From: a virus | Direction: 5' to 3' (one strand) | Virus record (IMG/VR): IMGVR_UViG_3300028840_006907 | Span: 64,001-128,000 of that record | Length of the DNA stretch: 64,000 nucleotides | Shown: positions 2,341 through 63,352 of the stretch, piece by piece | Position numbering within the stretch: the stretch's first letter is position 1 | Layout of the letters: each line of letters starts with the position of its first letter | Made by a program: the position numbers and the translations under genes | Notes under the pieces: generated by a model | The model's database searches: none | What the model saw: the letters and a program-made list of their open reading frames with translations, nothing else | Told to the model about the DNA's origin: nothing

Positions 2341-5300
2341 ATGTACTCTATTGATGATTTTATTCAAACTGTTTTTTCATATACTCTTCAGAAACAGAAA
2401 TTCTTCGCAGCAGCAGAACGTGCTTTAAAGAAAAATCTCCAATCCTATATACGCCCCGACTTTTTCGGAACTAGTTCGGGAGATGTCCGACTAGATAATT
2501 TACTTGTATCTCTCGCCAATAGATTGGGTGAAGCTGATGTTGAAGATAAAAGAATTTTTCTTGAAGATGCAGTAAGTGATTTTGTCTCAGAAGAGAAGGC
2601 TGACGAGTTAAGAGCAATCCTTGAAACCAAATTGGAAAGAAAACATAAAATCCCTGAAGAACTAGCTGATAAATTTATCAGTAAATCAGGTTTACTTGTT
2701 GATGAAGAGAAAAAAGAATTTGATCGTGTGAAGAAAGATATGGTCAAATTGATCTCAGGTTTTATTTACGGTTTCTTCGAAAATAAATTTAAAGAATTTG
2801 TACGAGCAAAAAAGAAAAAAGAAGATATCGGTAGAGAAGTAGCCCCGGATCTAGAAGTCCTGCCTGATAGTGAATTAATTGATCAAGCTGAAAAAGAACA
2901 AGAATGGCAAGAAGGTTTAACTAAAGATCTGTTTGGATATATCAATAAAAATGTTCCGGAAAAAAGGCGCTATGCTTATAAAATGATCTTGTTAAAAAGA
3001 TTTATGGTAGCACCAGCTAGTAGGATGGGTTTTGTTGAAATGGCAGAAAAGACAGGAATACCCAAATCATCTCTGGAAGAATGGGAAAAAGATTTGGGCC
3101 GTAGACTTGCTGAATATCTCTCTGCAGGTGGCCTTGGCCCTAAATTCGTTAGTGAGGGTGGCCTTTATAAAAAAGATGTTAAAGTTCCCGATTATAAAGA
3201 TGTTTTTAAAAACAAAGAGAATTCGAATGATTTCAAAGATTTCATGGAAGGCAAACAACCAAAAACCGGTAAACCCATGAGTGAGAAGGTAAAAAAAATA
3301 TTAGAGTTGTTTGCTGAAGGTAAAGATACCAAGGAAATCGAATCACAGACTGATGCGAGTATTGGTCAGATAAAAAAATTAAAAAGTACTCATTTCTCTC
3401 CCTGGTATAAAGAGTGGTATGCTGAAATGCTTAAGGATGTCAGAGAAGCTACAGAACGTATAAAGAAAGCTCTTATGATAATTAATGGTGAGACACCTCC
3501 TCCAGCTTCTCATGAGAAATATGTGAATATGGCAATAGCTAAAAAATACCCTCTTGAACTTACTGTAACTTTTAGTGCCAATTATGATAACCAGGATTTA
3601 ATAAAGGAAAGTGATCGAGTTGATCCGGAAAAAGACCCGGTTGATTTTAAATACAAACATTACCAGGTAAAATTAGAAAGGACCAGTAGACCCCGAATTG
3701 AATATACTTTTGATCAAAAATTAACCGATAAAGGTGATTTTGAAGGTAGCCCTCGATCATCATTGGTCATTGAAGGAAATCCTGGTCATGAAGGTTTGAG
3801 AAGAAGGCTCGATGAATATGTCGAGCAAGAAATGAAACCAGAGGGTATCCTTCCTTACGGTCCTTCGGTAAAGGGTAGAAAACCTGTCCAGATCCCTGTT
3901 GAATATGTAAATGAATCTCTTGATAGTACTAAGACCTATGATGGGTCTAAAAAAAGAAGATATCGTGGATTTATTGATTTCGCTGACAAGTACAAAGGTT
4001 TCATGGTAAAAGACCAACCTCATTTAACCCGGGTTCAGGAAGAAAGTAAAAGGGAAGAGAAGAAATTGTTACCTAAGGGTGGAAAAAATGAAATTCGAAA
4101 ATTGATCCAGCATTTAAAAGAAAATATTGGTGATGAAATGGAAGAGACTACACCCGATAAGAAAAAAGTTGAGGTGTGGAAAAAACAGATTAAAGAATTA
4201 CAGGATCATTTGAAGAAAGATTCTGAAAAAGAAATAGTGGATTTTGTCTCAAAACATAAAGAGAGGTTTAAATTCGCTGTCTCTGAAGAGCGCATGAAAA
4301 ATGTTCGTGAATTGATGAAACTCAGAGAACTAGTAGAAAACCAAGAACAACGATTGTTACAAAGAAAAATGAAAGGTGATCCTAAAGATAAGGATACAGT
4401 TAAACTTAAAGAAGATATAGCAACAAATAAAGATAAAATCACTAAGCTCGAAAAAATCCTTGAAGAAACAAAAGAGCCATTTCCTCCACCAGAATCGGCT
4501 AAAGTTCAAAAGTTATTAAAGGAACTTTCTGATCTCGGTATTAAAGACAGAAAATTAGAAGAATTCCTGACTTCAACTGATCTCCAATTTTTTGTTAACC
4601 AGGTACAAGGTGCTCTGGCCAAGGAAGCACAAGATAATATCGCAGGTGTTAAGAAAAACAAAAATATGAGTGATGAGGAAAAGAAACAGGAATATGAAGC
4701 TATTGAGAGAAAACGTGGTGTAAAGCTGAATAAATTTATCGAGTTGTTTGAAGCTGTACCTGAAGACATGAAAAAACGTCTGGAGAAATATAAAAAGGCT
4801 GATCCCAGTGGGTATAAAAAATTAGAAAAGAAGCATGGGGCTCTTTTAAACTGGGTAAATAATCCTGAAAAAGCCCTCTCTAAAGTAAAACAGAATCTTT
4901 CTACACCGAAAACTCTTGAGGCTCCAAAAGGTAAACAGGAATCAGTGGTACCTATGGAGGAAGAGGATGCTAAATACATGCTCAATTGGCTTGAGGCCCA
5001 GTTACAGGGTTTCGATGTTATAGGAGAAAGATTTGGTCAGGCAGCTTTAAAAGCAGAAGGTTTAAGTCCACAAGAGAGAGTTAAGGTAGAAAAACAATTA
5101 AAAGATACAGAAAAAGAGTTTCAGGATTTACGAAATAGAATAGGTGAAATGGAAGGTAAAGGGAAGGCTACCACTAGTGAAATCAAAGATCTGAAAAAAG
5201 ACATACCGACTTATATGAGAACAATAGAAGGTTTAAAAAGTTCTCTTTCTGATTCAAAAGAATCTCCTGCTATGATTATGGCACAAGTTTTAACTGATCG

Positions 5301-6885
5301 ACTTTCTGATTTCACTAAAATGTACAATCCGTTATCAAAGACTTTATGGTTTAGCCCAAAAACCTATGAGAAGAGAGCAGAAATTGTTACCAGTGAAGAT
5401 GATCCAGCTTTAGCTTCATTGCAAAAGAACATTGCTAAGGATACAGTTTCATTTTCAAAACTCAGCATCTTCGATAAAGAATCCATTAGATCTCTGGCAA
5501 GTACCATCCGGTCAGGTTTATCAAAATTCAAAAAGGAGTTACCAAGAATGGCCTCTTTTAATCCAATCTATTTAACAGTAGAAGAAAAAGCCCTTATGGA
5601 TAAACAAGCTAAGGAAGAAGATCACTTTGAAAAACGTGTTAAATTTGTTTTTCCTGAAGGTGAATTGAATGATGCCAAAAATATGGTAACTCAGCTCAAA
5701 GAGAAGAAATTAGATGATGCATCGAAAAAAGCTCAGAAAGAATTATCAGAATTAATTAAAAATGTCACAAGTGCCTATGATGATTTCGATATAGGTAAAA
5801 TTAAAGCATTGGCAGAAAAAGAGGAGATTTCTGAATCAAAAGCTGCTGTTCGTTTAAAAAGAATAAAAGACTCATTGGCTAAATATGCTCTAAGTCAATT
5901 CATTCTTAAGTGGCAAGATGTCATAGACATGGGATTTAAAGATACTCCAAGAAAGAAAGGACCTTTGGGAGGACCGGAATCCCAAAAATATGATAAAATT
6001 TTGGAAATAATTGAAGAGGATGTACCTGAGTTATTTAAAGAGGCTCCTCCTGAGAAAGAAATAAAAGAAGCTCCTAAAGGCTTACCTACTCCTAAGGAAA
6101 TCAGAGAACGTATCGAAATGGAATTTGAAGAAGGATTTCCAGCACAAAAAGAAAGAGAATACAGAACTCTGAAGGACAAAGGTCATAAATTATTCAAAGA
6201 TCCTTCTGGGGCTGGTGGTGGCGGTGGCGGAAAAGGTAAAAGTCGCCCAAAACCTATAAAGAAACATCCTCCTGCCCATACATATGAAACACTTAAGAGT
6301 AATTTCAAAGAAGCTCTGAAAACAAAATCAGTTCATGACATAGTACTTAGTGAAATAGGCAGGTATTTACATAATGTGAGAAATTATGTGAAAGGTGGCT
6401 CTTATTTCGATGTGGATGATGTTGTTGCTGGAGTTGTCGATGTATTGAAAAATTTTAAAAAAGTCATCAAATCATTAAGAGTAACCATGGATCCAGGAGC
6501 TACTGCAGATATAAAACTGAAAGATGAAAAAGAGGCAAAACAACTTTTTAATAAATTATCAGATATTTACAAATTAATAGATATGATTGCTGCTGATGAA
6601 AGTGGGAAACCTGTTATAAAAATAGGTCCTATACCAGGTGATCTGAGTAAGATAAAAACTCAACGTGGTGAACCCGATACCTGGTTCCCGAAAGGTCTTA
6701 TGGAAGCTGTTCAAGTAAAAAAACGAGAAGAGATTGAAGAAGGAGCAAAAGAGAAAGCTCCTGAAAAGTCAGTTTCAGCAAAAAAAGTATCAGCACAATT
6801 TTTGGCTTTTAAATTAGCACATAAGTTTTCCTTTTCAGATTTACAAAAGATTGAAGGTCTGAAAGAAGATATAGATAAAAAATAA
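2341..6885 (+). CDS. large Lys/Glu-rich coiled-coil protein (1514 aa), possibly virion-associated
   Basis: Single uninterrupted 4.5-kb ORF, GGAAGGA RBS, low-complexity charged sequence with a Gly-rich stretch. Confidence 0.55.
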   Translation: MYSIDDFIQTVFSYTLQKQKFFAAAERALKKNLQSYIRPDFFGTSSGDVRLDNLLVSLANRLGEADVEDKRIFLEDAVSDFVSEEKADELRAILETKLERKHKIPEELADKFISKSGLLVDEEKKEFDRVKKDMVKLISGFIYGFFENKFKEFVRAKKKKEDIGREVAPDLEVLPDSELIDQAEKEQEWQEGLTKDLFGYINKNVPEKRRYAYKMILLKRFMVAPASRMGFVEMAEKTGIPKSSLEEWEKDLGRRLAEYLSAGGLGPKFVSEGGLYKKDVKVPDYKDVFKNKENSNDFKDFMEGKQPKTGKPMSEKVKKILELFAEGKDTKEIESQTDASIGQIKKLKSTHFSPWYKEWYAEMLKDVREATERIKKALMIINGETPPPASHEKYVNMAIAKKYPLELTVTFSANYDNQDLIKESDRVDPEKDPVDFKYKHYQVKLERTSRPRIEYTFDQKLTDKGDFEGSPRSSLVIEGNPGHEGLRRRLDEYVEQEMKPEGILPYGPSVKGRKPVQIPVEYVNESLDSTKTYDGSKKRRYRGFIDFADKYKGFMVKDQPHLTRVQEESKREEKKLLPKGGKNEIRKLIQHLKENIGDEMEETTPDKKKVEVWKKQIKELQDHLKKDSEKEIVDFVSKHKERFKFAVSEERMKNVRELMKLRELVENQEQRLLQRKMKGDPKDKDTVKLKEDIATNKDKITKLEKILEETKEPFPPPESAKVQKLLKELSDLGIKDRKLEEFLTSTDLQFFVNQVQGALAKEAQDNIAGVKKNKNMSDEEKKQEYEAIERKRGVKLNKFIELFEAVPEDMKKRLEKYKKADPSGYKKLEKKHGALLNWVNNPEKALSKVKQNLSTPKTLEAPKGKQESVVPMEEEDAKYMLNWLEAQLQGFDVIGERFGQAALKAEGLSPQERVKVEKQLKDTEKEFQDLRNRIGEMEGKGKATTSEIKDLKKDIPTYMRTIEGLKSSLSDSKESPAMIMAQVLTDRLSDFTKMYNPLSKTLWFSPKTYEKRAEIVTSEDDPALASLQKNIAKDTVSFSKLSIFDKESIRSLASTIRSGLSKFKKELPRMASFNPIYLTVEEKALMDKQAKEEDHFEKRVKFVFPEGELNDAKNMVTQLKEKKLDDASKKAQKELSELIKNVTSAYDDFDIGKIKALAEKEEISESKAAVRLKRIKDSLAKYALSQFILKWQDVIDMGFKDTPRKKGPLGGPESQKYDKILEIIEEDVPELFKEAPPEKEIKEAPKGLPTPKEIRERIEMEFEEGFPAQKEREYRTLKDKGHKLFKDPSGAGGGGGGKGKSRPKPIKKHPPAHTYETLKSNFKEALKTKSVHDIVLSEIGRYLHNVRNYVKGGSYFDVDDVVAGVVDVLKNFKKVIKSLRVTMDPGATADIKLKDEKEAKQLFNKLSDIYKLIDMIAADESGKPVIKIGPIPGDLSKIKTQRGEPDTWFPKGLMEAVQVKKREEIEEGAKEKAPEKSVSAKKVSAQFLAFKLAHKFSFSDLQKIEGLKEDIDKK

Positions 6886-6923: not shown

Positions 6924-7682
6924 TTGGAGACATCTGTGAAGTATAGCGTACTTGTACCCTACTATAAACGCCTAGGGCACCTACATAATACCTTTATTTC
7001 CTTTCTACACCATTATTCAGATAGAAATGATTATGAGGTTGTCATAGCAGAAGATTATAAAAATGTCCAGAATAAAAAAGACCATGACGGTCTATCAGAA
7101 ACCATTGAGAAATTCCGTGAAAAAATACCGATAATTCATTTAACTCTTTCTATGGAAACCTGGAATCCAGCTCATGGTTTTAATGAAGCTGCAAAGTGGG
7201 CTTCTGGTGAATATTTCGTTGTAACCAATCCAGAATGTTTCCATCAAGTGAACATACTGGCTGGACTCGATAAAGAATTTGAAGAAGACCCCAATGTCTA
7301 TGTTGTATGTGGTTGTATGAATTATGTCCGTTGTAATTTTTTTATTAAAAACTTTAATGATCTAAATGGAAAATTTCAGAGATGGTACCAACACTCAATA
7401 CATAGAGCAGCCCACTATCATTTCTGTTCAGCTATTTCAAAACAGAATTGGGTAAAAATAGGAGGATTCGATGAAGACTTTGCTATGGGTATAGCCTATG
7501 ATGATGTCGATTTTAAATTAAGCATTCAAAAAGCCAAGATACCCTTTCATATCCGGGATGACCTTCTTACTATACATATTGACCATGGTTCCTTCCCATC
7601 TCCTCCAAATGCTCAGAAATTAGTTAATCGAAATAGAATCACCTATCAAAGAAAATGGGAAGGAAGTAATGAATCTTACTAG
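6924..7682 (+). CDS. putative glycosyltransferase-like protein
   Basis: 252-aa ORF with non-ATG start (TTG 6924 or GTG 6936); weak GT-A-like features only. Confidence 0.35.
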   Translation: METSVKYSVLVPYYKRLGHLHNTFISFLHHYSDRNDYEVVIAEDYKNVQNKKDHDGLSETIEKFREKIPIIHLTLSMETWNPAHGFNEAAKWASGEYFVVTNPECFHQVNILAGLDKEFEEDPNVYVVCGCMNYVRCNFFIKNFNDLNGKFQRWYQHSIHRAAHYHFCSAISKQNWVKIGGFDEDFAMGIAYDDVDFKLSIQKAKIPFHIRDDLLTIHIDHGSFPSPPNAQKLVNRNRITYQRKWEGSNESY

Positions 7683-9762
7683 TTATACCGCAGCCGACAG
7701 TATCCCGATAAAATTGATTAAGAACTTTAAATTGTTAAAGTCCATGACAACAAAAGGAGTCATCTTACCAATCCATGTCCAGTTCATACCCACAAATAGA
7801 TGTAACATGAAATGTGGATTTTGTAGCTGTGCTGAAGATGACAGAAAAACAGAAATGTCCCTTAAAAATGCTAAGAAGATCATCAGAAAATTAAAAAAAC
7901 TCGGTACTCAATCCGTAACCATCACCGGAGGAGGAGAACCACTCCTTTATCCTCATCTCCAAGAATTGTTTTCTCTGTTTAAAGATGCCGGGATAAAAAT
8001 CGGTTTTGTTACCAATGGCCTCTTATTAGGTAAATGTACCTATGAAGATGTAACCTGGTGTCGGATTTCTAATTCTGATGAAAGAAAAATGGACATGGAC
8101 TATTATCACACAATAGCTTATGCTGTTGAAGATAACCCAAACGTGGACTGGGCCTTTAGTCATGTCGTTTCTCCAAAACCAAATATCTCCGAAATAAAAC
8201 GGATCATAGAATTTGCCAATCTCCATGATTTTACCCATGTCCGATTAGTAGCTGATCTATTGAATTATAAAGAAGTAGATTTAATGCAGTTAAAAATCAC
8301 TCTTCGAGATGAAAATGTCGATGATGATAAAGTCATCTATCAAAGTAGAAATACCCCGCTCAGAGGCGGAGACTGTTATATATGCTATCTTAAACCCATG
8401 ATAGGGGCTGACTGTAATGTGTACGCTTGTTGTTTAGAGGCTAATGAACCTGTATTAATCCAGAGAAATAACGAAAGGATGTATTTATCTATAAAGGATG
8501 TTGTTCCAGGGGATTATGCTTGTGAATATGGAAAGATTTTAAATGTGTTTCATAAAGAGGGTGAAGAAGGCTTGGAAATAGTTTTGCAAAATAATAGGAC
8601 TATTTATGTTTCGAAAGATCATCTTATGCTTAAATTGACAAACCCTGAAATTAGACATAAGAGAAAGAAGTTATTATCTGACTATGAATTAGATACAATA
8701 GAATCTTCTGAATTAAGAATTGGAGATTTACTTCCGGTCAAATATAAATATGATATTAGTGAAATAAAAGAAGATACTATATCTGAAGAAGAAGCAGAAT
8801 TAATAGGATATTATGTAGCTGAAGGTTGGTCCAATGAACGAACTTGTATAGTTGATAAAAAATATCCTACTAGAACTACCACTATAGGATTTATGCTAGG
8901 GAAAGAGTCAAGAGAATATATAAGAAGATTTGAAGAAATTTGTGATATTTTGAATCTAAATTTTTCTATGACTGAACGTAGAACTGGTATGCAGTATCAG
9001 ATAGGTGCACATAAACCCTACGATGACTTAATTGTACACTGTGGTAATAAAGCAGAATTAAAAAAGATCCCTCCTTTTATTTTAAACGGCTCTGATAAAA
9101 TAAAGTGGAAATTTATTCAAGGCTATTTTGGAGGTGACGGGAATTTTCAAACTCCTTCTAAAAGCTATGATGGTTTTAAAATGAGAATGAGTACTGTCAG
9201 TAGACAACTAGCTAATGATATAATTTATCTCTTTTGTACTTTAAATATTCATGCTTCTATGAGAGTTGAGAGACGTGAAGGAAAAATGATAATAGAAGGA
9301 AGAGAGGTAAATGCTAAAGATCGGTATCATATAAATATAGGGGGAGCCTATAATTTAGAAAAAGCCCCATTCCTAAATGTAATTCAAACAAAAGAAAGAA
9401 GTCCTAAAAGAGCCCTCGGTTTTTTGAAAGATGAGGATAAGGGCATTATGTTTGTACCAGTTAAAGAGATCAGAGAGAAAAAGTTAGGAAAATTAGTAGA
9501 CATTCAAGTGGAAGGTTCAAATAAATTTATATCTTCATTTGGTATAATAGTTCATAATTGTGGCGTCCAGTATGCTCTTAAAAAGCCTTCAAAGAATCTT
9601 CCTAAGAAACTGAGCCTAGGAAGTGCTTTTGATCTTGAGAAGATAATTGAGAACAGTAATAAGCCCCTGGACGGGAGCATGTGTTATCGATGCTATTATA
9701 GTAATTATAACAAGATACTAGGATCCATCCTGGATGATACCGATCATATGGAGTTTGTATGA
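7669..9762 (+). CDS. radical SAM protein interrupted by an intein
   Basis: CNMKCGFC (CxxxCxxC) Fe-S motif near N-terminus; about 376-aa insertion with intein hallmarks. Confidence 0.7.
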   Translation: MNLTSYTAADSIPIKLIKNFKLLKSMTTKGVILPIHVQFIPTNRCNMKCGFCSCAEDDRKTEMSLKNAKKIIRKLKKLGTQSVTITGGGEPLLYPHLQELFSLFKDAGIKIGFVTNGLLLGKCTYEDVTWCRISNSDERKMDMDYYHTIAYAVEDNPNVDWAFSHVVSPKPNISEIKRIIEFANLHDFTHVRLVADLLNYKEVDLMQLKITLRDENVDDDKVIYQSRNTPLRGGDCYICYLKPMIGADCNVYACCLEANEPVLIQRNNERMYLSIKDVVPGDYACEYGKILNVFHKEGEEGLEIVLQNNRTIYVSKDHLMLKLTNPEIRHKRKKLLSDYELDTIESSELRIGDLLPVKYKYDISEIKEDTISEEEAELIGYYVAEGWSNERTCIVDKKYPTRTTTIGFMLGKESREYIRRFEEICDILNLNFSMTERRTGMQYQIGAHKPYDDLIVHCGNKAELKKIPPFILNGSDKIKWKFIQGYFGGDGNFQTPSKSYDGFKMRMSTVSRQLANDIIYLFCTLNIHASMRVERREGKMIIEGREVNAKDRYHINIGGAYNLEKAPFLNVIQTKERSPKRALGFLKDEDKGIMFVPVKEIREKKLGKLVDIQVEGSNKFISSFGIIVHNCGVQYALKKPSKNLPKKLSLGSAFDLEKIIENSNKPLDGSMCYRCYYSNYNKILGSILDDTDHMEFV
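8431..9558 (+). mobile_element. intein with LAGLIDADG-type homing endonuclease domain
   Basis: Starts with Cys (CLEANEP), block-B-like SKDH, LAGLIDADG-like LIGYYVAEGW and FIQGYFGGDGNF, ends IIVHN followed by Cys. Confidence 0.6.
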
Positions 9763-12019: not shown

Positions 12020-15018
12020 AGGGAAACCCCGCTCAGATGCAGGGAAGAAGATTTCATTAAGAAGTTTTAGGAAGAGCCCCGCAGAGGAGGAACCTCGCAA
12101 GATGCGGGGAAAAGGAACTTCAGGCAATTGGCTGGGATTAGCCCCGCGAAGGTGCGGGGAAAACAGTTTCCATGAACTATATTAGGGAGAGCCCCGTTGA
12201 CACGGGGAAAAACCCGTCTTTACTTAGTGAGATCGAGGAAGGAACAGCCCCGTTGATACGGGGATAAAATAATATGACTTTTACGAATCCTCTAGGGACA
12301 GCCCTGCAGAGTGCAGGGAAAAGTAACGTCTGGGAATTGTTTAGGATTAGCCCCGCGAAGGTGCGGGGAAAGCCATAGATTTTATATTGACACAGGAAAA
12401 ACCCCGGTATAGTCCGGGGAAAAGTACGTAATCAAGATGTAAGAGGATTAGACCCGGCGAGTCCGGGAAAAGATTGGCCCAATCACTATTAAGTAGGGTG
12501 GGATAGCCCCGCAGAATGCAGGGAATAGATGCCTCACTTCATACCACTGCGTCAACCCCAGTAGAGTCCGGGGAACATGAGTGTAAATCTCTGTCGTAGG
12601 TTCAACCCCGGAGAGATCCAGGGGAAATGGGTACAACTTTGTGTACAAGGGGTAGCCCCGGAGAAATCCGAGGAAAATGAGTGTAAATCTGTGTTGAGGG
12701 TCCAGCCCCGCTCAGTGCAGGGAATATTAAGGGTCAAAACCGGTTGCCCCTGCGTCAACCCCGGTGAAGTCCGGGGAACATGAGTGTAAATCTCTGTGGT
12801 AGGATCAACCCCGCAGAGTGCAGGGAAAAATTGAACTTTTTAATCAACCCTGTAACAGCCCCGGAGTCAGTTTTGACAAGTCCGGGGGAATATCACTTCG
12901 TAAAGGAGTGGCTGTCAAGGGGGCAACCCCACAGAGATGTGGGGGAAAGTAAGCCAACGTTCCGGCATAGGCATAGCCCCTGAATTTACAGAGGGCAATT
13001 TTTCCAGTGTCCAGAAGAAGATGCAGGGAGAACCCCGGAAAGTCCAGGGGAAAATGTGTCACAGAACAACTCTTTGTGATCTCCAGGGTGAACCTCGCAG
13101 AGGTGCGGGGGAAAAGTGTCAATGAATACCAGTATGAGTCAGCCCCGGTATAGCCCGGGAATAATTACTTCTAGTCTGATAGAAGGTGCAACCCCGGGAA
13201 GTCCGGGGAAATCGGTCATAGCCATCTGGACCAGGAAGAACCCCGGTGAGATCCGGGGAAAAGGACGTTTAAATCCTGACATAGTAGCTAACTGAGGCGT
13301 AGCTCCGGTCGGGTCAGCCCTGCAGAGAGCAGGGAACAAACATAGGTAATAAATCGGCACGTGACAGCCCCGCAGAGAGGCGGGGATATATAGCGTGAGT
13401 TGCAGGGTAAGGTTCAACCCTTGTTTACCAAGGGAAAAATACCGGCAGATAAGAATTTAGGATGACCCCCGGTGAAAGTCCGGGGAAAATAATTAATACG
13501 CAAAACAGCAGGGCCAGTCCCGCGAGATGCAGGGAATGTTCAGCCAGTTTGTGTAATATTTCAGGAGACGGTGGTGCAACCCTGTCAAGGACAGGGATAT
13601 GCAACATCTGTGGCTCTACGAGGATCAGCCCCGGCAAGTCCGGGGAATTATCTTTTTATAAATGCCAAAAATAACAGTTGGGAGGGGCCAATTCCGCTGA
13701 TGCAGAAAGACATTTCATAATTAATATATTTATGGAAGAGCCCCGGTGAAATCCGGGGAAGTCAAGTAATTACAGCTCGCTGACCACTGGGGGTAGCCCC
13801 GGTAAGATCCGGGGAAAAGTTTGTTTTGAAACAAACGCTAGGAACAGCCCCGCTCAGGTGCGGGAGAATCACTGCATATTTGGTTAATGGCCCCCCTGAG
13901 TCAATCCCGCTCAGGTGCGGGGAAAATAAAGAGATAGACTAATTCAATATGCAGGAAGAACCCCGCTATATGCAGGAAAATTTAAAAAGTATGGATATCT
14001 CCTTGAGTCAACCCCGGAGATCCAGGGAAATGTAGGCACTCGTTGTCCTTTGTCGAAGTGTGAAGGGCAAACCTCGTTGATACGAGGAACAAATTTAGTT
14101 TTACTTTTGAATAAAAGTGGTCAAGCCCCGCTCAGGTGCAGGGAATAGATAAGTATACCGACGATAGCCAGGACAGCACCTGTGGTTTAGCCCTGCATGT
14201 GCAGGGAATAGTTGAGTTGAAGATTGAAGAAAAAGATAAAGTAGGGTCAGCTCTGCATGTGCAGAGAATAGCCTTTCTTCAAGCGTTGACTTGGGAGTAG
14301 GTGGGGATCAGCCCTGCACATGCAGGGAATAGAATGGTGAATCAAATTCCATTTTGTCAAAGAACGGCGACAGCCCTGCCAGTGCAGGGAATATGATTTT
14401 AACGATGGTAAAATTGGGAAGGGGTCAGCCCTGCACATGCAGGGAATAGTCGCTAGTTCAAATCCAATCGCCCCGACAGGATCAGCCCTGCATACGCAGG
14501 GAATAGAAAATACTGACGATAAACTAGCGATATGGGATCAGCCCTGCATACGCAGGGATATAGCTTGACGAATGGCCGTTTTAATGCCAGGAGTAACCCC
14601 GCTGCGAGGAATAGTCATTTCAAATATATAGGTAAAGCCCCGCGAAAGAGCGGGGGTATAATATGGCGGATTTTGTTCTATTGGTGGAATCCGGGCCATC
14701 CCCGTAGATTGACACGGGGAGATCTTTTAGAAATCTACCAAGGTGCCTTTCCGGAGTCATCCCCGTATATACGGGGGAGATTTCAATTCAGGGAATTTCG
14801 GTACAAAATTGGTCGGTTTATCCCCGTATACACGGGGAATATTGTTTCAATAGGGCATAGCAGATCTAGGATCGGGGAATCCCCGCAGGGGCGGGGAACA
14901 TCTCGGATTTATTAATCAAATTCAAACGTTTTTCGGGGAATCCCCGCAGGGGCGGGGAACATTGTTTTAAGAGGTGGTAGTTACCTCGTAGGGGAATCCC
15001 CGCAGGGGCGGGGAACAT
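12020..15018 (-). CRISPR. CRISPR array 1: about 55 hairpin repeat units, three identical leader-proximal repeats, progressively divergent distal repeats
   Basis: Leader-proximal repeat (minus strand) ATGTTCCCCGCCCCTGCGGGGATTCCCC at 14874-14901, 14935-14962, 14991-15018 with 33- and 28-nt spacers; periodic CCCCGC/GCGGGG-type hairpins back to about 12020. Confidence 0.8.
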
Positions 15019-15127
15019 ACTAAGTCATAATGCCATTCAAATCAAAGGTTTATAGGAACCCTAATTTTCTACCAAAGAAAAATGTACTTGTCATGTATAA
15101 ATGTCAAAGAGCGTCAGAGAGAAATCC
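15019..15127 (-). promoter_or_regulatory. CRISPR leader 1 with conserved ~50-bp block shared with leader 2
   Basis: 15058-15112 nearly identical to 22627-22677; contains TTGACA on the minus strand. Confidence 0.5.
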
Positions 15128-17628: not shown

Positions 17629-18273
17629 TTAATAAGATTTATACGGTGCAATAAGCATCATACCACATCCGAAACCTTTACTCTTACCAATTCCATTATA
17701 AATAGTATTCACAAAAAGATTTTTATTGACTACCTGAAGGACTCCTCGTAAATCAATACTGAAAAAAGATACAACTTTACCATCTTTTTTTTTGAATTTA
17801 CAGAATTGAAAAGATTGAACGGAATGCTTTTGAATCATATTTTTAAAACCGTAACTTTGGCCACGTTTCTGAAGCCAATTCTTTGAGGATTCGTGAGCAA
17901 TGAAATTCCAATTATAGGGTTCATCAAGAACTTTCATTTCATTTGCCAGATCCGTCATGATTGAAACCTTTTTCCTGGTTTTCAATTTACAAACTTCGGC
18001 ATTGAGTCTGAGATCGTATTGAAGAAATATTCCAGATTTTAAATTATTTAAATCGAATACTTTTGTTTGTGTAGTGTATTCGTCCTCTGGAGGATTTGGT
18101 TTCTTTTTTGATATGATATAAAGTTCACCATTATAGAGATAATAAAGGAAATCTCTTACCCTGTTAGATCTTTGATCACCAAAAAATTCCCAGACTTTTT
18201 GATGAAGCTCATATATACCTTCGGTGGGAGAATATCTTCTCAAGCTGTCACTGTAAATTTTACTCAGAAACAT
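17629..18273 (-). CDS. cas6e: Cas6e (CasE) endoribonuclease
   Basis: Start set at internal Met (GGAGG RBS); MFLSKIY N-terminus and C-terminal GIGKSKGFGCGMM resemble E. coli CasE. Confidence 0.75.
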   Translation of the reverse strand: MFLSKIYSDSLRRYSPTEGIYELHQKVWEFFGDQRSNRVRDFLYYLYNGELYIISKKKPNPPEDEYTTQTKVFDLNNLKSGIFLQYDLRLNAEVCKLKTRKKVSIMTDLANEMKVLDEPYNWNFIAHESSKNWLQKRGQSYGFKNMIQKHSVQSFQFCKFKKKDGKVVSFFSIDLRGVLQVVNKNLFVNTIYNGIGKSKGFGCGMMLIAPYKSY

Positions 18274-18910
18274 TCGATACCTCCTTCCATCCCATATACT
18301 CAATTCGGGATCGGTATTGTTTGGGACCGGTTACCTGATCAAAACGTTGATTGCTTTTTACTATTTTGATACTGGTATCGGTACCTTCCCAAAATATTCG
18401 GTTCTTTTCACGCCCTTTAAGACTACCATTAAGAAATTCAGGAAGAGAGTACTGTTCAAACGCCTCTGAGAGGCTCTCAGCCTTAACGATCTTAGGATCG
18501 GGTGGTATGTCATAGGAACAGCATTTCCTTCCAAGAAAGGGGGTATAGATGGGCCTATTAAGGGCTTCCATTATTTTCTTCAAAGTATAGGGACAGTTTT
18601 CATTCTCCCATATACATACGGTAAAGATGGCATTGACTAGGTAAAATCTATTCGAGACAATTCCTGGTCCGACTCTGACAATATGGAAATCTTTTAGAAT
18701 AGTACCAGGATTATCTTCCCTACAGGCAAATCCTAGTTGGGCAATCTGAGTTAATTCTTTCACCATTTCTCTTGAGACTCCAAGAGAAGCAGCGATTAAC
18801 CCGCTTACGCCAGATTTGGTAGGGTGATCATCTGTCTTTCGGGTATTACCCTGAAGGGGGAGACCCCAGGCGGATAGAGTACCCGAAAGAAGGAATAATA
18901 AATAATTCAT
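18260..18910 (-). CDS. cas5e: Cas5e (CasD)
   Basis: MNYLLFLLSGTLSAWG and YTPFLGRK resemble E. coli CasD MRSYLILRLAGPMQAWG and YTPYLGRR. Confidence 0.8.
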   Translation of the reverse strand: MNYLLFLLSGTLSAWGLPLQGNTRKTDDHPTKSGVSGLIAASLGVSREMVKELTQIAQLGFACREDNPGTILKDFHIVRVGPGIVSNRFYLVNAIFTVCIWENENCPYTLKKIMEALNRPIYTPFLGRKCCSYDIPPDPKIVKAESLSEAFEQYSLPEFLNGSLKGREKNRIFWEGTDTSIKIVKSNQRFDQVTGPKQYRSRIEYMGWKEVSNVSE

Positions 18911-18933: not shown

Positions 18934-20019
18934 TTAGAAATCGATGAATTTAATAAGTTCGTTAAGTGATCCTTCTTTTGTGAGTACATTCAAGATCCTA
19001 TAATCCATTTCATGGTAACATGAATCAAAACTACTTTTCATGTCAAGAAGGGCTTTGACAGCATTTTCCATAACCGCAGGACCTTTAATAGGAGTATGGA
19101 AGGCTTGACAGAGACTTCGTGGGGCAGTTGGAGCTTTTTCGATCATAACGAATGCTGGCCATGTTTGACTATCAGCACATCTGTTTTTATTAGCTGAGGG
19201 GGATGAAGTGGTTAATACTTCGACTATCTGTCGGATGGTTTTGATAGCTAGTTCTTTATTACCTTGAAGATTTTTCGTTAAGAGCTTGGAATTGATTACA
19301 AAGAAACTATAATAGACACCCTGGGTAAAATAGAAATTATCTAGGTGACCTGAACCTTTGGTTCCTTCTAATCCAAGGTTATCGGTAGCTGTAAAATAGT
19401 CGGTTTGGACAGATCCTATATCATTGACAGTAAAAGCGAAATTTGAGGACAGTGAAGCTTCAACATCATATTGGGGCAGTTTTGCAATCATGCGACCGGT
19501 AAGGGCTGTTCTGATTCCTGTATTTTCTTTTAAAAAGAAGAATTCTTGATCAGTGGGTTTATGCCCCTCAATAATTTTGTCAATCAGTTCTTCAATATGT
19601 TGTCTTTCGCTCGGTTGAATTTTAATGGTTTCGGTTTTAAGAAGATCAACCTTTTTTTTCTTTTTCTTTGTATTTTTATCATCTTCTTTTTCAGTGTGCT
19701 TTTTGATATCAACAAAAGTACCAATAAATTTAAATGCGTATTCTTCAGCTTTTTTAGGTGATATTCCACCATCAATTAATCTTTTCTCGACATATTTTCC
19801 AATAAGAGGAGTCTGAAGACCTATATCGATTTCGCACCTTTCAAATAGAGCCTTGTTTAAATCATATTTTCGATTTTGTGAAGACGAATAACCTCGGTTG
19901 GTATCATTAAGTTTCATTGTTTTAGGACGTCCGTCCTGGCCTCGGTTTATGCTAGATACAGCTACACCAGTGAGAAGGTGAATTAACCAGTAGGGGTCTT
20001 TAATAATAGTTTTAGACAT
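18934..20019 (-). CDS. cas7e: Cas7e (CasC) backbone subunit
   Basis: 361 aa; N-terminal SSINRGQDG...SSQ pattern like Cas7e SxLNRDD...SSQ. Confidence 0.75.
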   Translation of the reverse strand: MSKTIIKDPYWLIHLLTGVAVSSINRGQDGRPKTMKLNDTNRGYSSSQNRKYDLNKALFERCEIDIGLQTPLIGKYVEKRLIDGGISPKKAEEYAFKFIGTFVDIKKHTEKEDDKNTKKKKKKVDLLKTETIKIQPSERQHIEELIDKIIEGHKPTDQEFFFLKENTGIRTALTGRMIAKLPQYDVEASLSSNFAFTVNDIGSVQTDYFTATDNLGLEGTKGSGHLDNFYFTQGVYYSFFVINSKLLTKNLQGNKELAIKTIRQIVEVLTTSSPSANKNRCADSQTWPAFVMIEKAPTAPRSLCQAFHTPIKGPAVMENAVKALLDMKSSFDSCYHEMDYRILNVLTKEGSLNELIKFIDF

Positions 20020-21989: not shown

Positions 21990-22210
21990 ATGATACCTCC
22001 GCGATTTATGAATGGTTGCGGAAATTTAATTATTTATGTTTTTACTCAACTTATTTATGTTTTTTTGCTTAGCTGAGACTTTGATTTAATTTTTTAATTA
22101 ACCCATTAGTTATAAAGTTAATTATAATCTAAAATAAATATAAATGCAACATTTTTTCAAGTACTTTATATATAACTATAATATTTCGAATTGTTTATAG
22201 CATGAGAAAT

Positions 22211-22236
22211 ATTTCCTCCGTTTACACGGAGGAAAT
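22211..22236. other. perfect 10-bp palindromic hairpin between array 2 and cas8e
   Basis: ATTTCCTCCG TTTACA CGGAGGAAAT. Confidence 0.35.
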
Positions 22237-22264
22237 TTAGGATTATATCAGAGATGGGCTCTGA

Positions 22265-22586
22265 GACAGCCCCGGTAAAGTCCAGGGAAATAAAAATTAG
22301 TGATAATTCGGGAATCAGCAGGAGGAGAGCATCAGCCCTGCGTATGCGGGGAATAGTGTTATCGTCTTACAGGATGTAAAGCAGAGACAGCCCCGCGTAT
22401 GCGGGGAATAGAAATTAATACATCTCATAAAATCTAGCATCAGCCCCGCGTATGCGGGGAATAGTTATTTATCTATACTTCCTACAACTCCCATAACGCA
22501 TCAGCCCCGCGTATGCGGGGAATAGCTCGTTGGTTTTCCCATTCCACAAAAGTTCAACGCATCAGCCCCGCGTATGCGGGGAATAG
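22265..22586 (-). CRISPR. CRISPR array 2: five 28-bp repeats plus a degenerate terminal repeat, four spacers
   Basis: Repeat (minus strand) CTATTCCCCGCATACGCGGGGCTGATGC at 22329, 22384, 22437, 22498, 22559; spacers 27, 25, 33, 33 nt. Confidence 0.85.
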
Positions 22587-22690
22587 ACTATAATATAATT
22601 AGTTGAAAATCAGAGAGTTACAAAGACCCTAATTTTCTACCAAAAAAAGTACTTGCCGTTTATAAATGTCAAAGAGCTTATCTTTAAAGG
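22587..22690 (-). promoter_or_regulatory. CRISPR leader 2
   Basis: 22627-22677 nearly identical to the array-1 leader block. Confidence 0.5.
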
Positions 22691-22857
22691 TATAAATCCT
22701 CTTCATCCTCAGGAGCCAGATCTATATCTGAAAGAGTTCTGCTCCCACCGAAATCTAATTCTAATACTTCATCTTCTCCACCTGTATTAAAAAAATCATC
22801 TTCTTCACTTGGCTCTTTAAGAATCTCATCAGCATCGTATTCTTCGATTGGTAACAT
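22684..22857 (-). CDS. small highly acidic protein (57 aa)
   Basis: Hand-translated MLPIEEYDADEILKEPSEEDD...; GAGGGG RBS; stop abuts leader 2. Confidence 0.45.
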   Translation of the reverse strand: MLPIEEYDADEILKEPSEEDDFFNTGGEDEVLELDFGGSRTLSDIDLAPEDEEDLYL

Positions 22858-31316: not shown

Positions 31317-32270
31317 TTATTCCTTAAAATAAAATTTAGATTTTAAATTATCGTAAGCACTCCAATTACCTTCAATAATACGATTAGTATATATAGTACT
31401 TAGATTGTATTCAGAGTCGATTATATCAGCTTTAGATAAAAGTATAGCTTCAGGAGTCATCGGGACTACTGCAGCCCCTAAATCCAGAGAACCGTGATGA
31501 CTTAATATTAAATGACCTAATATTTTTTTCATTCGGTTTCTTTCTTCCGGAGGAGCTTCTAATGCGTTTATGATTGGTATAATATTAGTATAACTTAAAT
31601 TGAGATGACTATGCAATCGTCCTATATCAGTCATTTCAATAGTCAAGTCATATGTATAGGAAAACATTTTTCCGTGATCATGAAGAAAAGCTCCCATGCA
31701 AATGATAGAAGGATCTATTGGATAAATATAACAGAAAGAGGAACAGATCTTCGTTACACATAAAGTATGCTCTAATAGACCGTGTAGATAAGCGTGATGG
31801 ACGTTACCCTTTCCTCCAGGGCACATTTTAAATTTATGCACAAATGTTTCATTATTTTTAAATTTATCCCAGAGATCTCTCATATATTTATTTTTAACTT
31901 TATCATCCATTATTTGAACTAGTTCAACCCACATTTCATCGGGATCATGTGGTGAAGTAGGAAGGAAATCTACAGGATTATAAGGATTTGTTTCTTCAAT
32001 TGAAGATACAATGATTTGATTCTGACCTTGATATACATTAACTTTCCCTTGAATACGACAAACTTTAGCATTTTTAACTATTTCGTAATAAGTATCTGCA
32101 TGATTGAAAGCGGTTGCTGCTATCTGTCCTTTTTTATCTCTCAACTCAAAAGTTAGAAAATTACCTTTTGAAGCGTTTTTGAATGGTCTTAGTGAAGCGT
32201 CTGCTATAACGAAGATTCCATCTATATCTGTTCCACTACTCAATGTTAATATATCTGCTGTGTTTACCAT
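31317..32270 (-). CDS. OB-fold plus HD-domain nuclease (YhaM-like)
   Basis: HHAYLHGLLEHT and FLHDHGK HD-domain motifs after an OB-fold-like N-terminus. Confidence 0.55.
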   Translation of the reverse strand: MVNTADILTLSSGTDIDGIFVIADASLRPFKNASKGNFLTFELRDKKGQIAATAFNHADTYYEIVKNAKVCRIQGKVNVYQGQNQIIVSSIEETNPYNPVDFLPTSPHDPDEMWVELVQIMDDKVKNKYMRDLWDKFKNNETFVHKFKMCPGGKGNVHHAYLHGLLEHTLCVTKICSSFCYIYPIDPSIICMGAFLHDHGKMFSYTYDLTIEMTDIGRLHSHLNLSYTNIIPIINALEAPPEERNRMKKILGHLILSHHGSLDLGAAVVPMTPEAILLSKADIIDSEYNLSTIYTNRIIEGNWSAYDNLKSKFYFKE

Positions 32271-48382: not shown

Positions 48383-49201
48383 TTAACTTGATAAAGTTAA
48401 GCTTGGCACTTTTTTAATAGTAGTCTCAGTTTTACTCTCTTCAAAACTGACACCAACAGTAGTCTCATAAAAATCATATAATTTCTCTAATTGTTCTTCC
48501 AATCTTTGATTTGATTCAATAGCTATTTCTCTCGCTTGTTTAAACATGTTATAAGCCATTTTTAAATAATCTTCTTTGTTTTCATCGTAAGCTTCACGAA
48601 TTTCTTCCCTTGATACTTCCATTTTATCACTACAATAAAAATTATCAAAAAACTGGCTAGTTAATTCATATAGTATGATAGCTTTTTTCTCAGCATATTC
48701 TTTAAATTCATTATCAGTCATTTTATCAATATGATTTTGTTTAAATGCTGTAATCATGAGTTCTTTGACATCTCTACACATAATTAAATCTACAAGAGTG
48801 GCAAATGCTTTGTAATCTTCATGAGATGTGACATTTTTACTATCTTTAATATGTGGCATAAGAAGTTTACCATAAGTATTAAGCATGGCTGAACGGGAGA
48901 TAATTAATTGTTCTTCAACAGCAGACATTTGAGCTTTAAGAGTTTCCTGATATTTGATATTGCTATATACAGACATCACTTCAATTGTTTTTACCACGGT
49001 TTTTTTGAAATCAATGTTATGAGGGCATTTTTCATGAGGGGATGTTTTTCCTCCTTTTTGTGTCCCCAGTGCGAATACGAAAGATTTACCTATTTTTATA
49101 TATGGTTTTCCAAGAAAAATGATGATTAGTAATGTGATTAGGATAATGAGCAACACAGTCATAAGTTGCCAAAACTCAAATTTACTTAGAAATTCGACCA
49201 T
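48383..49201 (-). CDS. membrane-anchored hypothetical protein
   Basis: 272 aa with N-terminal transmembrane helix. Confidence 0.5.
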   Translation of the reverse strand: MVEFLSKFEFWQLMTVLLIILITLLIIIFLGKPYIKIGKSFVFALGTQKGGKTSPHEKCPHNIDFKKTVVKTIEVMSVYSNIKYQETLKAQMSAVEEQLIISRSAMLNTYGKLLMPHIKDSKNVTSHEDYKAFATLVDLIMCRDVKELMITAFKQNHIDKMTDNEFKEYAEKKAIILYELTSQFFDNFYCSDKMEVSREEIREAYDENKEDYLKMAYNMFKQAREIAIESNQRLEEQLEKLYDFYETTVGVSFEESKTETTIKKVPSLTLSS

Positions 49202-52523: not shown

Positions 52524-53405
52524 TTATTTGTCTATATAGTGATAGCCCATTTTCTCCCACTGCTCTCTGAATTGAATAGCTTCATATTCTATCCCTAATA
52601 AATTTATTAGTATCTTTTCACTCTTTTTTGTTTTTTGTTGAATAGCTTGTTTAGTGATTTTATAAGAGTTAGCTAATTCTTCAAAAGTCCATTTACCTTT
52701 ATTATCCAAATTATACCGATGGATAATAATATTTTGTTGTTGTTCATTTAAATAGTTTTTTATGACTCTTCGAATGATAACATCTATTTCCGAATTCTCA
52801 TATTCTTTTCCGGTTAAGTAATGTTCATCAAGATCAGGTATATTATTTATTAGAAGGATGTCTTCAATTTCATTTCCATTACCTATGGGTTCATAGAGAG
52901 ATTCAACTTTTAATAATTTAAATCTCAATTTTTCCTTTTCTGTATATCTAATGTGAGGCATGTATTTTGTAATTATATTCTTTCTCGCTATTGGTGGTAT
53001 CATACTCATTATAAAAGTGGTCTCTTTATAAGCTGGGTTATAGCATTTACTTGAATGGGTGAGAATAGTAAGATTGATTTCATTTATAATATCCTGATAT
53101 TCTACTCCACCTTGTAAAGAGGTATATATCTTCTTTGCTATATTCACGACTATTCCTTCGTGTTTGGCTGGATCTATACGGTATATCTGTCGTATTAAAA
53201 TTTCTTTTCCTTTTATGGATGGTGAAGGTCTTTCTTTAAAGAGGCGGTATTCAGCTATTTTATTTTTTATTTGTTTAATTCCCGCTTTTTTGGCTGTCTT
53301 TTCATCGGTACAATTTGTTACTACTGCTGTGAATACTCTTTTGGAACCACTGAGATTTAATTTATCAGCTTTACCTTGTAATTTTACCTTAACTTCAAAT
53401 AGCAT
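52524..53405 (-). CDS. sigma-70-family-like factor
   Basis: C-terminal TFEELANSYKITKQAIQQ resembles sigma region 4 HTH. Confidence 0.45.
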   Translation of the reverse strand: MLFEVKVKLQGKADKLNLSGSKRVFTAVVTNCTDEKTAKKAGIKQIKNKIAEYRLFKERPSPSIKGKEILIRQIYRIDPAKHEGIVVNIAKKIYTSLQGGVEYQDIINEINLTILTHSSKCYNPAYKETTFIMSMIPPIARKNIITKYMPHIRYTEKEKLRFKLLKVESLYEPIGNGNEIEDILLINNIPDLDEHYLTGKEYENSEIDVIIRRVIKNYLNEQQQNIIIHRYNLDNKGKWTFEELANSYKITKQAIQQKTKKSEKILINLLGIEYEAIQFREQWEKMGYHYIDK

Positions 53406-63275: not shown

Positions 63276-63352
63276 TAAAAACAATAGTTATCAAAAGGTA
63301 ACTATAAGTTCTTTGACATTTCGGTTATTATGAAGTAAGCACATATTTATAT

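Follow-up and report, generated by a model that had tools for sequence, protein, structure and literature searches.

A small second CRISPR array with a shared leader upstream of cas8e in the type I-E-like system of a huge phage

We analyzed a CRISPR locus in a 64,000-nucleotide (nt) stretch of viral DNA, positions 64,001 to 128,000 of IMG/VR record IMGVR_UViG_3300028840_006907. This whole stretch is called the window, and coordinates refer to it unless a related locus is named. The minus strand carries cas8e, cas7e, cas5e, cas6e and the gene of a 743-residue helicase, in that order, with a long array beyond the helicase gene (array 1) and a short one upstream of cas8e (array 2), which is our subject. 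The window comes from a huge phage like those that Al-Shayeb et al. described (PMC7162821). The window has about 34% G+C, 21 tRNA genes, one transfer-messenger RNA (tmRNA) gene and many small open reading frames (ORFs). A Logan contig from a different run and a 388,651-bp Joint Genome Institute (JGI) metagenome contig (3300017963, Ga0180437_10000019) both encode an identical Cas7 protein.

The initial annotation had reported a CRISPR array beside cas8e, and the gene assignments bear this out: Cse1, Cas7e, Cas5e and Cas6e profiles (Pfam, NCBIfam, PADLOC) match strongly, with E-values of 1e-26 to 1e-55. The AlphaFold model of Cas8e (predicted local distance difference test, pLDDT, 81) resembles Escherichia coli Cse1 with a template modeling (TM) score of 0.76–0.79 and separately matches Cse2/Cas11 chains (probability 1.0, TM 0.6–0.7, about 150 columns). 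Because the model also matches Cse2 structures, we read Cas8e of this phage as a fusion with Cas11; there is no separate cas11 gene. The Cas11 domain is most likely the helical C-terminal part (about residues 480–645), a placement that we infer, as the search output carries no query coordinates. At least one further database Cas8e (P0087) has both Pfam Cse1 and Cse2.

The helicase, of superfamily 2 (SF2), has its core at the start of the protein (ResIII, residues 45–225), lacks an HD domain and matches the Cas3 profile only faintly (E=0.006). It has no sequence match in the PDB, and its fold matches are generic SF2 helicases; neither sequence nor fold supports calling it Cas3. No Cas1, Cas2 or HD-Cas3 was found among the 29 window ORFs scanned (those flanking the cas genes and 20 others). 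The system thus has the Cas8e, Cas7e, Cas5e, Cas6e and Cas11 of type I-E, without HD-Cas3, without Cas1–Cas2 in the scanned ORFs and without the I-E handle AUAAACCG. Assignment to type IV-A, which has Csf1/2/3/5 effectors and a DinG helicase, was rejected: the effectors match I-E profiles, and the helicase has no DinG match by sequence or fold.

Table 1. Features of the CRISPR-Cas locus in window coordinates
Feature	Position	Strand	Remark
Array 1	12027..15018	minus	54 hairpin units, 52 distinct repeat variants
Array 1, conserved leader block	15055..15114	minus	paralogue of 22623–22679
SF2 helicase, 743 residues	15128..17359	minus	Cas3 position; ResIII/DEAD matches only
cas6e	17629..18303	minus	sole Cas6 found in the window
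cas5e	18260..18910	minus	profile matches
cas7e	18934..20019	minus	profile matches
cas8e with Cas11 (Cse2)-like domain, 647 residues	20046..21989	minus	Cse1 profiles cover residues 1–380 only
cas8e promoter-like element, TTGCAT-17-TATAAT	22121..22149	minus	conserved
Terminator-like hairpin, 11-bp stem	22211..22236	minus	downstream of array 2
Array 2, degenerate terminal unit	22262..22292	minus	TATTT CCCTGG ACTTTA CCGGGG CTGTCTCA
Array 2, spacer 5	22293..22327	minus	35 nt
Array 2, repeat 5	22328..22356	minus	C·A mismatch in stem pair 4, weaker hairpin
Array 2, spacer 4	22357..22382	minus	26 nt
Array 2, repeat 4	22383..22411	minus	variant handle CTGTCTCT on the minus strand (handle CUGUCUCU)
Array 2, spacer 3	22412..22435	minus	24 nt
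Array 2, repeat 3	22436..22464	minus	handle CUGAUGCU
Array 2, spacer 2	22465..22496	minus	32 nt, TTATGGGAGTTGTAGGAAGTATAGATAAATAA; no target found
Array 2, repeat 2	22497..22525	minus	same as repeat 1
Array 2, spacer 1	22526..22557	minus	32 nt, TTGAACTTTTGTGGAATGGGAAAACCAACGAG; no target found
Array 2, repeat 1	22558..22586	minus	leader-proximal, CTATTCCCCGCATACGCGGGGCTGATGCG
Array 2, repeat-proximal leader	22587..22622	minus	36 nt, ends ..TATAGT at the repeat junction; 69% identity to the same-length array-1 segment
Array 2, conserved leader block	22623..22679	minus	putative promoter, GCTCTTTGACAT..AAGTAC..TTTGGTAGAAAATTAGGGT; about 94% identity to 15055–15114

Array 2 spans 22262–22586 on the minus strand. 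It has five repeats of 28/29 nt and one degenerate terminal unit, the same count as in the initial annotation. On the plus strand the repeats read (N)GCATCAGCCCCGCGTATGCGGGGAATAG and end at 22356, 22411, 22464, 22525 and 22586; on the minus strand the repeat is CTATT CCCCGC ATAC GCGGGG CTGATGCG. This is the type I-E layout of 5 nt, a 6-bp stem with a 4-nt loop (16 nt) and an 8-nt handle. The three leader-proximal repeats share their first 28 nt, the third deviating at position 29 alone (CUGAUGCU versus CUGAUGCG). The fifth is weaker: its stem mismatch, C·A on the minus-strand RNA, halves hairpin stability from -12.1 kcal/mol in the intact repeat to -5.9 kcal/mol. Predicted Cas6e sites are 61, 61, 53, 55 and 66 nt apart, and the spacers, whose lengths are given in Table 1, are all different. 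Regular repeats and unique spacers are thus bounded by an AT-rich leader at one end (22587–22679) and a degenerate repeat at the other (22262–22292). A strict repeat motif (TT or TC, a six-pair CC stem, and U2 and C7 in the handle) occurs 42 times in the window, 37 times in array 1 and five in array 2, always on the minus strand and nowhere outside the two arrays. The handle CUGAUGCG departs from the I-E handle AUAAACCG, with only U2 and C7 in common. An Rfam scan (gathering cut-off and E ≤ 1) reported no CRISPR-DR or other relevant family in either array. Array 2 is real as a CRISPR array and probably functional. On its own it is an ordinary small array; the system it serves is unusual.

The array-2 region is the same in two independent assemblies (JGI and Logan), each 100% identical to the window over the shared stretch; the locus is carried by six assemblies of 0.2–1 Mb. 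The Logan contig, SRR6963591_119263, stops within array 2, at 22524. Population variation was rejected as the cause of this end; an exact 31-nt repeat that breaks k-mer assembly is probably the better explanation.

Four lines of evidence agree on the orientation of the arrays. Read on the minus strand, the unit of array 1 at 14822 is ATATTCCCCGTGTATACGGGGATAAACCG, which we take to be the canonical I-E repeat. On minus-strand RNA the non-Watson–Crick stem cells of the 54 array-1 units are 14 G·U versus 3 C·A. All of the strict motifs lie on this strand, and the degenerate units stand at the low-coordinate ends. This places the leader on the right, with array 2 read toward cas8e, in keeping with the direction first proposed. 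The plus-strand alternative, with none of the 42 motifs, no canonical repeat and the opposite mismatch balance, was rejected.

Searches with Cas7, Cas8e and the helicase recovered about six related lineages, all metagenomic and with phage-like neighboring genes. They are L003 with L007–L010 (Cas7 65% identical, helicase gene absent), L004 with L005 (Cas7 57% identical), L006 and L011 (array region identical, array between cas6e and the gene at the helicase position), L012–L017 (Cas8e 36% identical), L018 (helicase 59% identical) and L019 (helicase 33% identical). The helicase stands beside the cas genes in L004, L011, L012–L017, L018 and L019; in L011 it follows the array and is an 815-residue product with no Pfam match on record. 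Their arrays, one per lineage, lie downstream of either cas6e or the helicase.

The two arrays of the window have the same kind of leader. Pairwise alignment matches block 22623–22679 of array 2 with block 15055–15114 of array 1; over the coordinates that the initial annotation had called nearly identical, 48 of 51 aligned bases agree (about 94%), with 4 gap columns. Together with the orientation evidence, this upholds its proposal of a common minus-strand leader at the high-coordinate end of both arrays. The 36 nt between block and first repeat are 69% identical. The likeness is far beyond chance, because, in the 64 kb, exact copies of its 12-mer and 16-mer cores, TTGACATTTATA and TGGTAGAAAATTAGGG, are confined to the two leaders. 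The array-2 block contains a TTGACA -35-like hexamer at 22672–22667 (minus).

Both leaders carry the signature TCTTTGACAT..GGTAGAAAATTAG. Leaders of the related arrays start TCTTTGA[CA]AT and in most lineages continue with AAG[TC]ACAT and GGTA[GAC]RAAAT; both window leaders retain these lineage-wide elements, array 2 having AAGTACTT at the second. The motif heads the arrays in six related phage lineages, including those whose helicase is merely 33% identical, and the leader–repeat junction motif TAGT is present also in L004 and L019. Since the block is kept across related lineages and in both leaders of the window, it would be a conserved functional element of the phage family, most simply a promoter. 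Its 94% identity, compared with 69% in the rest of the leader, and its retention in lineages with a 33%-identical helicase argue for selection on both copies. A Bacteroidota-type promoter (TTTG / TAnnTTTG) was also considered; the cas8e promoter of the same locus is of plain TATAAT type. The first leader motif, TCTTTGACAT, is found exactly at two further sites, 48762–48771 and 63310–63319 (+), one of them 44 nt upstream of tRNA-His (63354), and may be a general promoter element of the phage.

Between array 2 and cas8e lie a terminator-like hairpin with a weak T-tract behind it (ATATTTCT) and a promoter-like element whose TATAAT is invariant in an alignment of the window with three relatives that have no array there. 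Because these two features separate the array from the operon, array 2 looks like a transcription unit of its own, set between a small acidic-protein gene and a pre-existing cas8e promoter. Of the proposal that array 2 is transcribed toward the cas operon, the direction therefore holds and simple co-transcription does not. A hairpin in the cas8e 5' untranslated region (21998–22022, TCCGCGATTTATGAATGGTTGCGGA on the plus strand) overlaps the GGAGG ribosome-binding site and is partly conserved in L011 and L019. The acidic protein, encoded just upstream of the cas locus at 22687–22857 (minus), has 57 residues, is very acidic and contains a DADEIL(K/R)EP motif. Its homologue has the same place in the L003 lineage (L003 2501–2662); a DNA mimic and a regulator are possibilities.

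Array 1 shows what is held constant in these repeats. Stem-pair statistics were taken from a structure-anchored alignment in Python; a MAFFT alignment had put gaps at the 5' end rather than in the loops. Of all stem cells, 99.1% are paired, whereas 1000 partner shuffles give 85.5% on average and 89.8% at most. In the handle, U occupies position 2 in 54/54 units and C occupies position 7 in 53/54. The three newest repeats are identical to one another, and no other array-1 repeats are identical. The stems covary (CCCCGC/GCGGGG, CCCTGC/GCAGGG, CCCCGG/CCGGGG, CCCCGT/ACGGGG, plus G·U intermediates), and array 1 has 50% G+C versus a background of 34%. A degenerate tail behind a regular leader-proximal part is seen also in arrays of related phages (L011, L012).

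The initial annotation equated the array-2 repeat with array-1 units at 14480–14560. This is wrong: the repeat is identical to no array-1 unit, and the nearest ones (14312 and 14486) differ from it at 6/33 positions. Among these differences, stem pair 4 has changed in a compensatory way (C-G versus U-A), and two bases in the loop and the handle at positions 6 and 8 also deviate. It nonetheless belongs to the same CTATT...CTGAT class. The handles of the two arrays also differ (CUGAUGCG in array 2, AUUCCCCG in array 1). The annotation was right that the repeats are unlike, but not that this is unusual under one Cas6e, because variation is the rule here, as the number of array-1 variants shows. 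As the array-2 repeat has the hairpin and the U2 and C7 invariants, one Cas6e and Cascade serving both arrays is to be expected in this system. The loops of neighboring repeats (14191–14557, 22336–22581) can be reverse complementary, ATGT versus ACAT in array 1 and GTAT (array 1) versus ATAC (array 2), which looks like repeated inversion of the hairpin loop.

The repeat classes and the related loci together suggest how array 2 arose. No array lies upstream of cas8e in the four lineages where that region was recovered (L003/L007–L010, L011, L012–L017 and L019); in L003, 168 nt separate the homologous acidic-protein gene from cas8e. Judging from these loci, array 2 is therefore a lineage-specific gain by duplication of leader plus array. 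Its terminal hairpin, CCCTGG-ACTTTA-CCGGGG, is like those of the CCGG class in distal array 1 (the unit at 13033, for example) and its remaining repeats are like the middle class, so that array 2 repeats the class order seen in the older two-thirds of array 1. Such an order fits a duplication that took place while the CTGAT class lay next to the leader. The array-1 leader would have been copied to a site between the acidic-protein gene and the cas8e promoter, probably along with some of the then-proximal CTATT...CTGAT-class repeats, and array 1 would afterwards have gained other repeat types at its leader end. The two arrays have no spacer in common.

Spacer lengths in both arrays fall into three classes, 18–20 nt (peak 19, n=18), 24–28 nt (n=13) and 30–35 nt (n=16), with empty bins at 21–23 and 29 nt. 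Each step, about 6 nt, is as long as the Cas7 repeat in Cascade. Lineages with 57–65%-identical Cas7 retain some 19-nt guides in common. One of these guides, ACNACAGAGATTTACACTC, occurs three times in array 1 (12579–12597, 12679–12697 and 12782–12800) and, with 3 mismatches, in arrays of the lineage with 65%-identical Cas7 (L003 7676, L007 6506, L008 6962, L010 5258); a more diverged version is in L006/L011 (L006 about 2751). Its retention across lineages would imply a conserved target. Another array-1 spacer, GTCGGGGCGATTGGATTTGAACTAGCGA (14453–14480), looks antisense to the T-arm and acceptor end of a tRNA or tmRNA (GGTTCAAATCC-like) and may derive from an RNA gene of a rival element.

A search for protospacers, suggested in the initial annotation, was carried out and returned no match with concatenated spacers against GenBank phages, with spacers 1 and 2 against IMG/VR (N at every sixth position to mask flipped positions), with spacer 1 against JGI metagenome contigs, or with all spacers against the window and 15 related loci. 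This negative result is weak, because the GenBank phage, IMG/VR and JGI collections searched do not even contain the source phage, whose environment is poorly covered. The whole locus, run by Megablast against GenBank phages, likewise gave no match, and neither did an IMG/VR scan with a Cas7 pattern. Competing phages and host genes are the candidate targets.

We consider it likely that array 2 is genuine, a small array that belongs to the type I-E-derived system of a huge phage and has the origin proposed above. Minus-strand transcription would begin in the conserved leader block, and the precursor would end mostly at the hairpin 22236–22211. The single Cas6e would cut behind each GCGGGG stem and release 61-nt CRISPR RNAs (crRNAs), each with the 8-nt handle CUGAUGCG, a 32-nt spacer and a 21-nt 3' hairpin, as well as shorter ones of 53 and 55 nt. 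These would load a Cascade of the Cas8e–Cas11 fusion, Cas7e, Cas5e and Cas6e. Target binding would more likely block or remodel DNA or transcription than shred DNA, because an SF2 helicase occupies the Cas3 position and there is no HD nuclease. The I-E anatomy of 5 + 16 + 8 nt, the 32-nt spacers of the two newest units, the stable hairpins and the adjacent I-E genes favor this reading, and shortened spacers are compatible with a functional Cascade (PMC5159557). Transcription and processing themselves are suggested by two sequence properties, hairpin stability and leader conservation.

Several observations weigh against this reading. A stem pair is broken in the fifth repeat, and two of the spacers are short, at 24 and 26 nt. 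None of the array-2 spacers has a protospacer in the collections searched. The leader promoter is partly sigma-70-like, with a perfect TTGACA and a weak -10 element, and a promoter scan was silent. The scanned ORFs lack Cas1/Cas2, and arrays of the related lineages differ between samples by 0–2 mismatches over 1.7–1.9 kb, with no sign of ongoing acquisition; the array may be static.

Most of these points would also suit a decaying by-product of segmental duplication, transcribed or not and of no use to the phage. Such a relic could be expected to find no targets in the collections searched, to lack adaptation genes among the scanned ORFs and to be absent from all relatives examined, and the older half of the array does show a broken stem pair, a variant handle and short spacers. 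We nevertheless think it unlikely: the leader block is kept at 94% next to leader sequence that has drifted to 69%, three repeats are identical and all family-wide invariants are retained, the two newest spacers have the canonical 32-nt length, and the short spacers share length classes with array 1.

The array also lies directly upstream of the cas8e promoter and points at it, so the element could chiefly regulate the cas operon, as a degenerate mini-CRISPR of the CreR/CreA kind that represses the cas8e promoter or as an extra promoter reading into cas8e past the weak T-tract. This is quite improbable. Neither the spacers nor the pseudo-spacer that follows the degenerate unit show a partial, 5'-anchored match to the region upstream of cas8e (21990–22264); the best spacer matches anywhere in the window are 12–14 nt, about chance level by our estimate for the number of comparisons, and CreR-like autoregulation was rejected on these chance-level seed matches. 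In addition, cas8e has its own promoter, conserved in relatives without array 2. We give very little credence to a decoy against a host type I-E system, that is, an RNA anti-CRISPR soaking up Cas6e or Cascade, or a mini-array using host Cas proteins. Repeat mimics and mini-arrays are known in phages (PMC11656645) and the array-2 repeat is I-E-like, but a complete Cascade and Cas6e of the phage itself adjoin the array and the leader belongs to the phage family. No exact match to the array-2 repeat core or to the array-1 proximal repeat was found in 185,579 species genomes, IMG/VR or metagenome contigs. Mimicry of a host repeat was accordingly rejected, as was a viral mini-array or RNA anti-CRISPR, a solitary repeat unit that copies the host's repeat exactly on a virus without cognate cas genes.

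Returning to array 2 as a genuine array of the phage's own system, one extension is possible but doubtful. The I-E arrays of this phage family may be fixed, hard-wired guide sets, of which array 2 would be the newest module, with its own expression control through the copied leader promoter. Without Cas1–Cas2 of their own, repeats would drift freely, restrained by the hairpin and two handle bases only. Spacers would become shorter by about 6 nt at a time (32 to 26 to 19–20), which would suit a mini-Cascade containing four or five Cas7 subunits and a single fused Cas11, and the HD-less helicase that replaces Cas3 would lead to silencing rather than cutting of conserved targets in the host or in rival phages.

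Elsewhere in the window, a 1514-residue ORF (2341–6885, +) has no Pfam match, precomputed annotation gives intein-family Pfam matches for a radical-SAM protein (7669–9762, +), and the product of 52524–53405 (minus), which contains a sigma-70 region 4 domain, is possibly a sigma factor of the phage. An OB-fold and HD-domain protein (31317–32270, minus), whose HD domain is not that of Cas3, is encoded some few kb upstream of the cas locus and has counterparts in two relatives (L009 2303–3259 and L011 870–1823). This domain combination recalls, we presume, the YhaM exoribonuclease family.

If this account of array 2 is right, an adaptation-less phage Cascade can widen its guide repertoire by leader duplication instead of spacer acquisition. 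The locus also offers a natural experiment on the range of repeat and handle variants that one Cas6e and Cascade tolerate; two handle positions and the stem base are apparently what is required. A Cas8e–Cas11 fusion with naturally short guides could interest builders of compact Cascade tools.

In the type I-E system of E. coli K-12, CRISPR-1 and CRISPR-2 share a homologous leader and have identical repeats ending in AUAAACCG. The present system resembles it in that more than one array accompanies the cas operon, the AT-rich leaders are related, a single Cas6e is available for all arrays, and the crRNA unit has 61 nt, with an 8-nt 5' handle and a 21-nt 3' hairpin. It differs in being phage-borne, in its differing repeats (handles CUGAUGCG and AUUCCCCG) and in the lack of any Cas1, Cas2 or Cas3 nuclease found in the window. 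Regulatory mini-CRISPRs of the CreR/CreA type have degenerate repeats beside a cas promoter and a guide partially complementary, over about 11 PAM-proximal nt or more, to a cas or toxin promoter; array 2 shares the degenerate repeats and the location, whereas the promoter complementarity was sought and not found.

Engineered E. coli Cascades lose one Cas7 for each 6 nt removed from the spacer, and the complex shortened by 12 nt, (Cse2)1(Cas7)4, still interferes (Kuznedelov et al., 2016, PMC5159557). Spacers about 6 or 12 nt shorter thus still assemble Cascade, with 5 or 4 Cas7 subunits (PMC5159557). The 24- and 26-nt spacers of array 2 and the 19–20-nt spacers of array 1 parallel these shortened crRNAs, natural here and engineered there. 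Speculatively, a Cascade with a single fused Cas11 would fit the 19–20-nt class.

Plasmid type IV-A3 systems carry out crRNA-guided repression with a helicase and no nuclease or adaptation module, and spacer acquisition in trans has been shown for them (10.1101/2023.06.23.546257; PMC11656645). Mobile-element carriage, the lack of any adaptation module found, a helicase in place of the nuclease, and I-E-like leaders and repeats are common to type IV-A3 (Benz et al., 2023) and the window system. The IV-A3 effectors are Csf-type and the IV-A3 helicase is DinG, whereas the window proteins are bona fide I-E and the helicase resembles no characterized subfamily; and unlike a system that acquires spacers in trans, the arrays related to ours are invariant between samples. 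Huge phages are known to carry CRISPR-Cas systems without adaptation genes, with a median of six repeats per array, including a type I-C variant in which a helicase replaces Cas3 (Al-Shayeb et al., 2020, PMC7162821). Silencing has been suggested for such nuclease-less systems (PMC7162821). The window matches that variant in its many tRNAs and tmRNA, the lack of any Cas1 or Cas2 found, an unidentified helicase for Cas3 and compact arrays. It is unlike it in being I-E-like, with Cas6e and a Cas8e–Cas11 fusion, where the variant is I-C-like and has no Cas6; a duplicated leader and extreme repeat heterogeneity are not described there. The system would thus be the type I-E counterpart of the nuclease-less helicase systems of plasmids (type IV-A) and huge phages (the I-C variant), adding a case to the argument that mobile elements repeatedly turn CRISPR from cutting to silencing.

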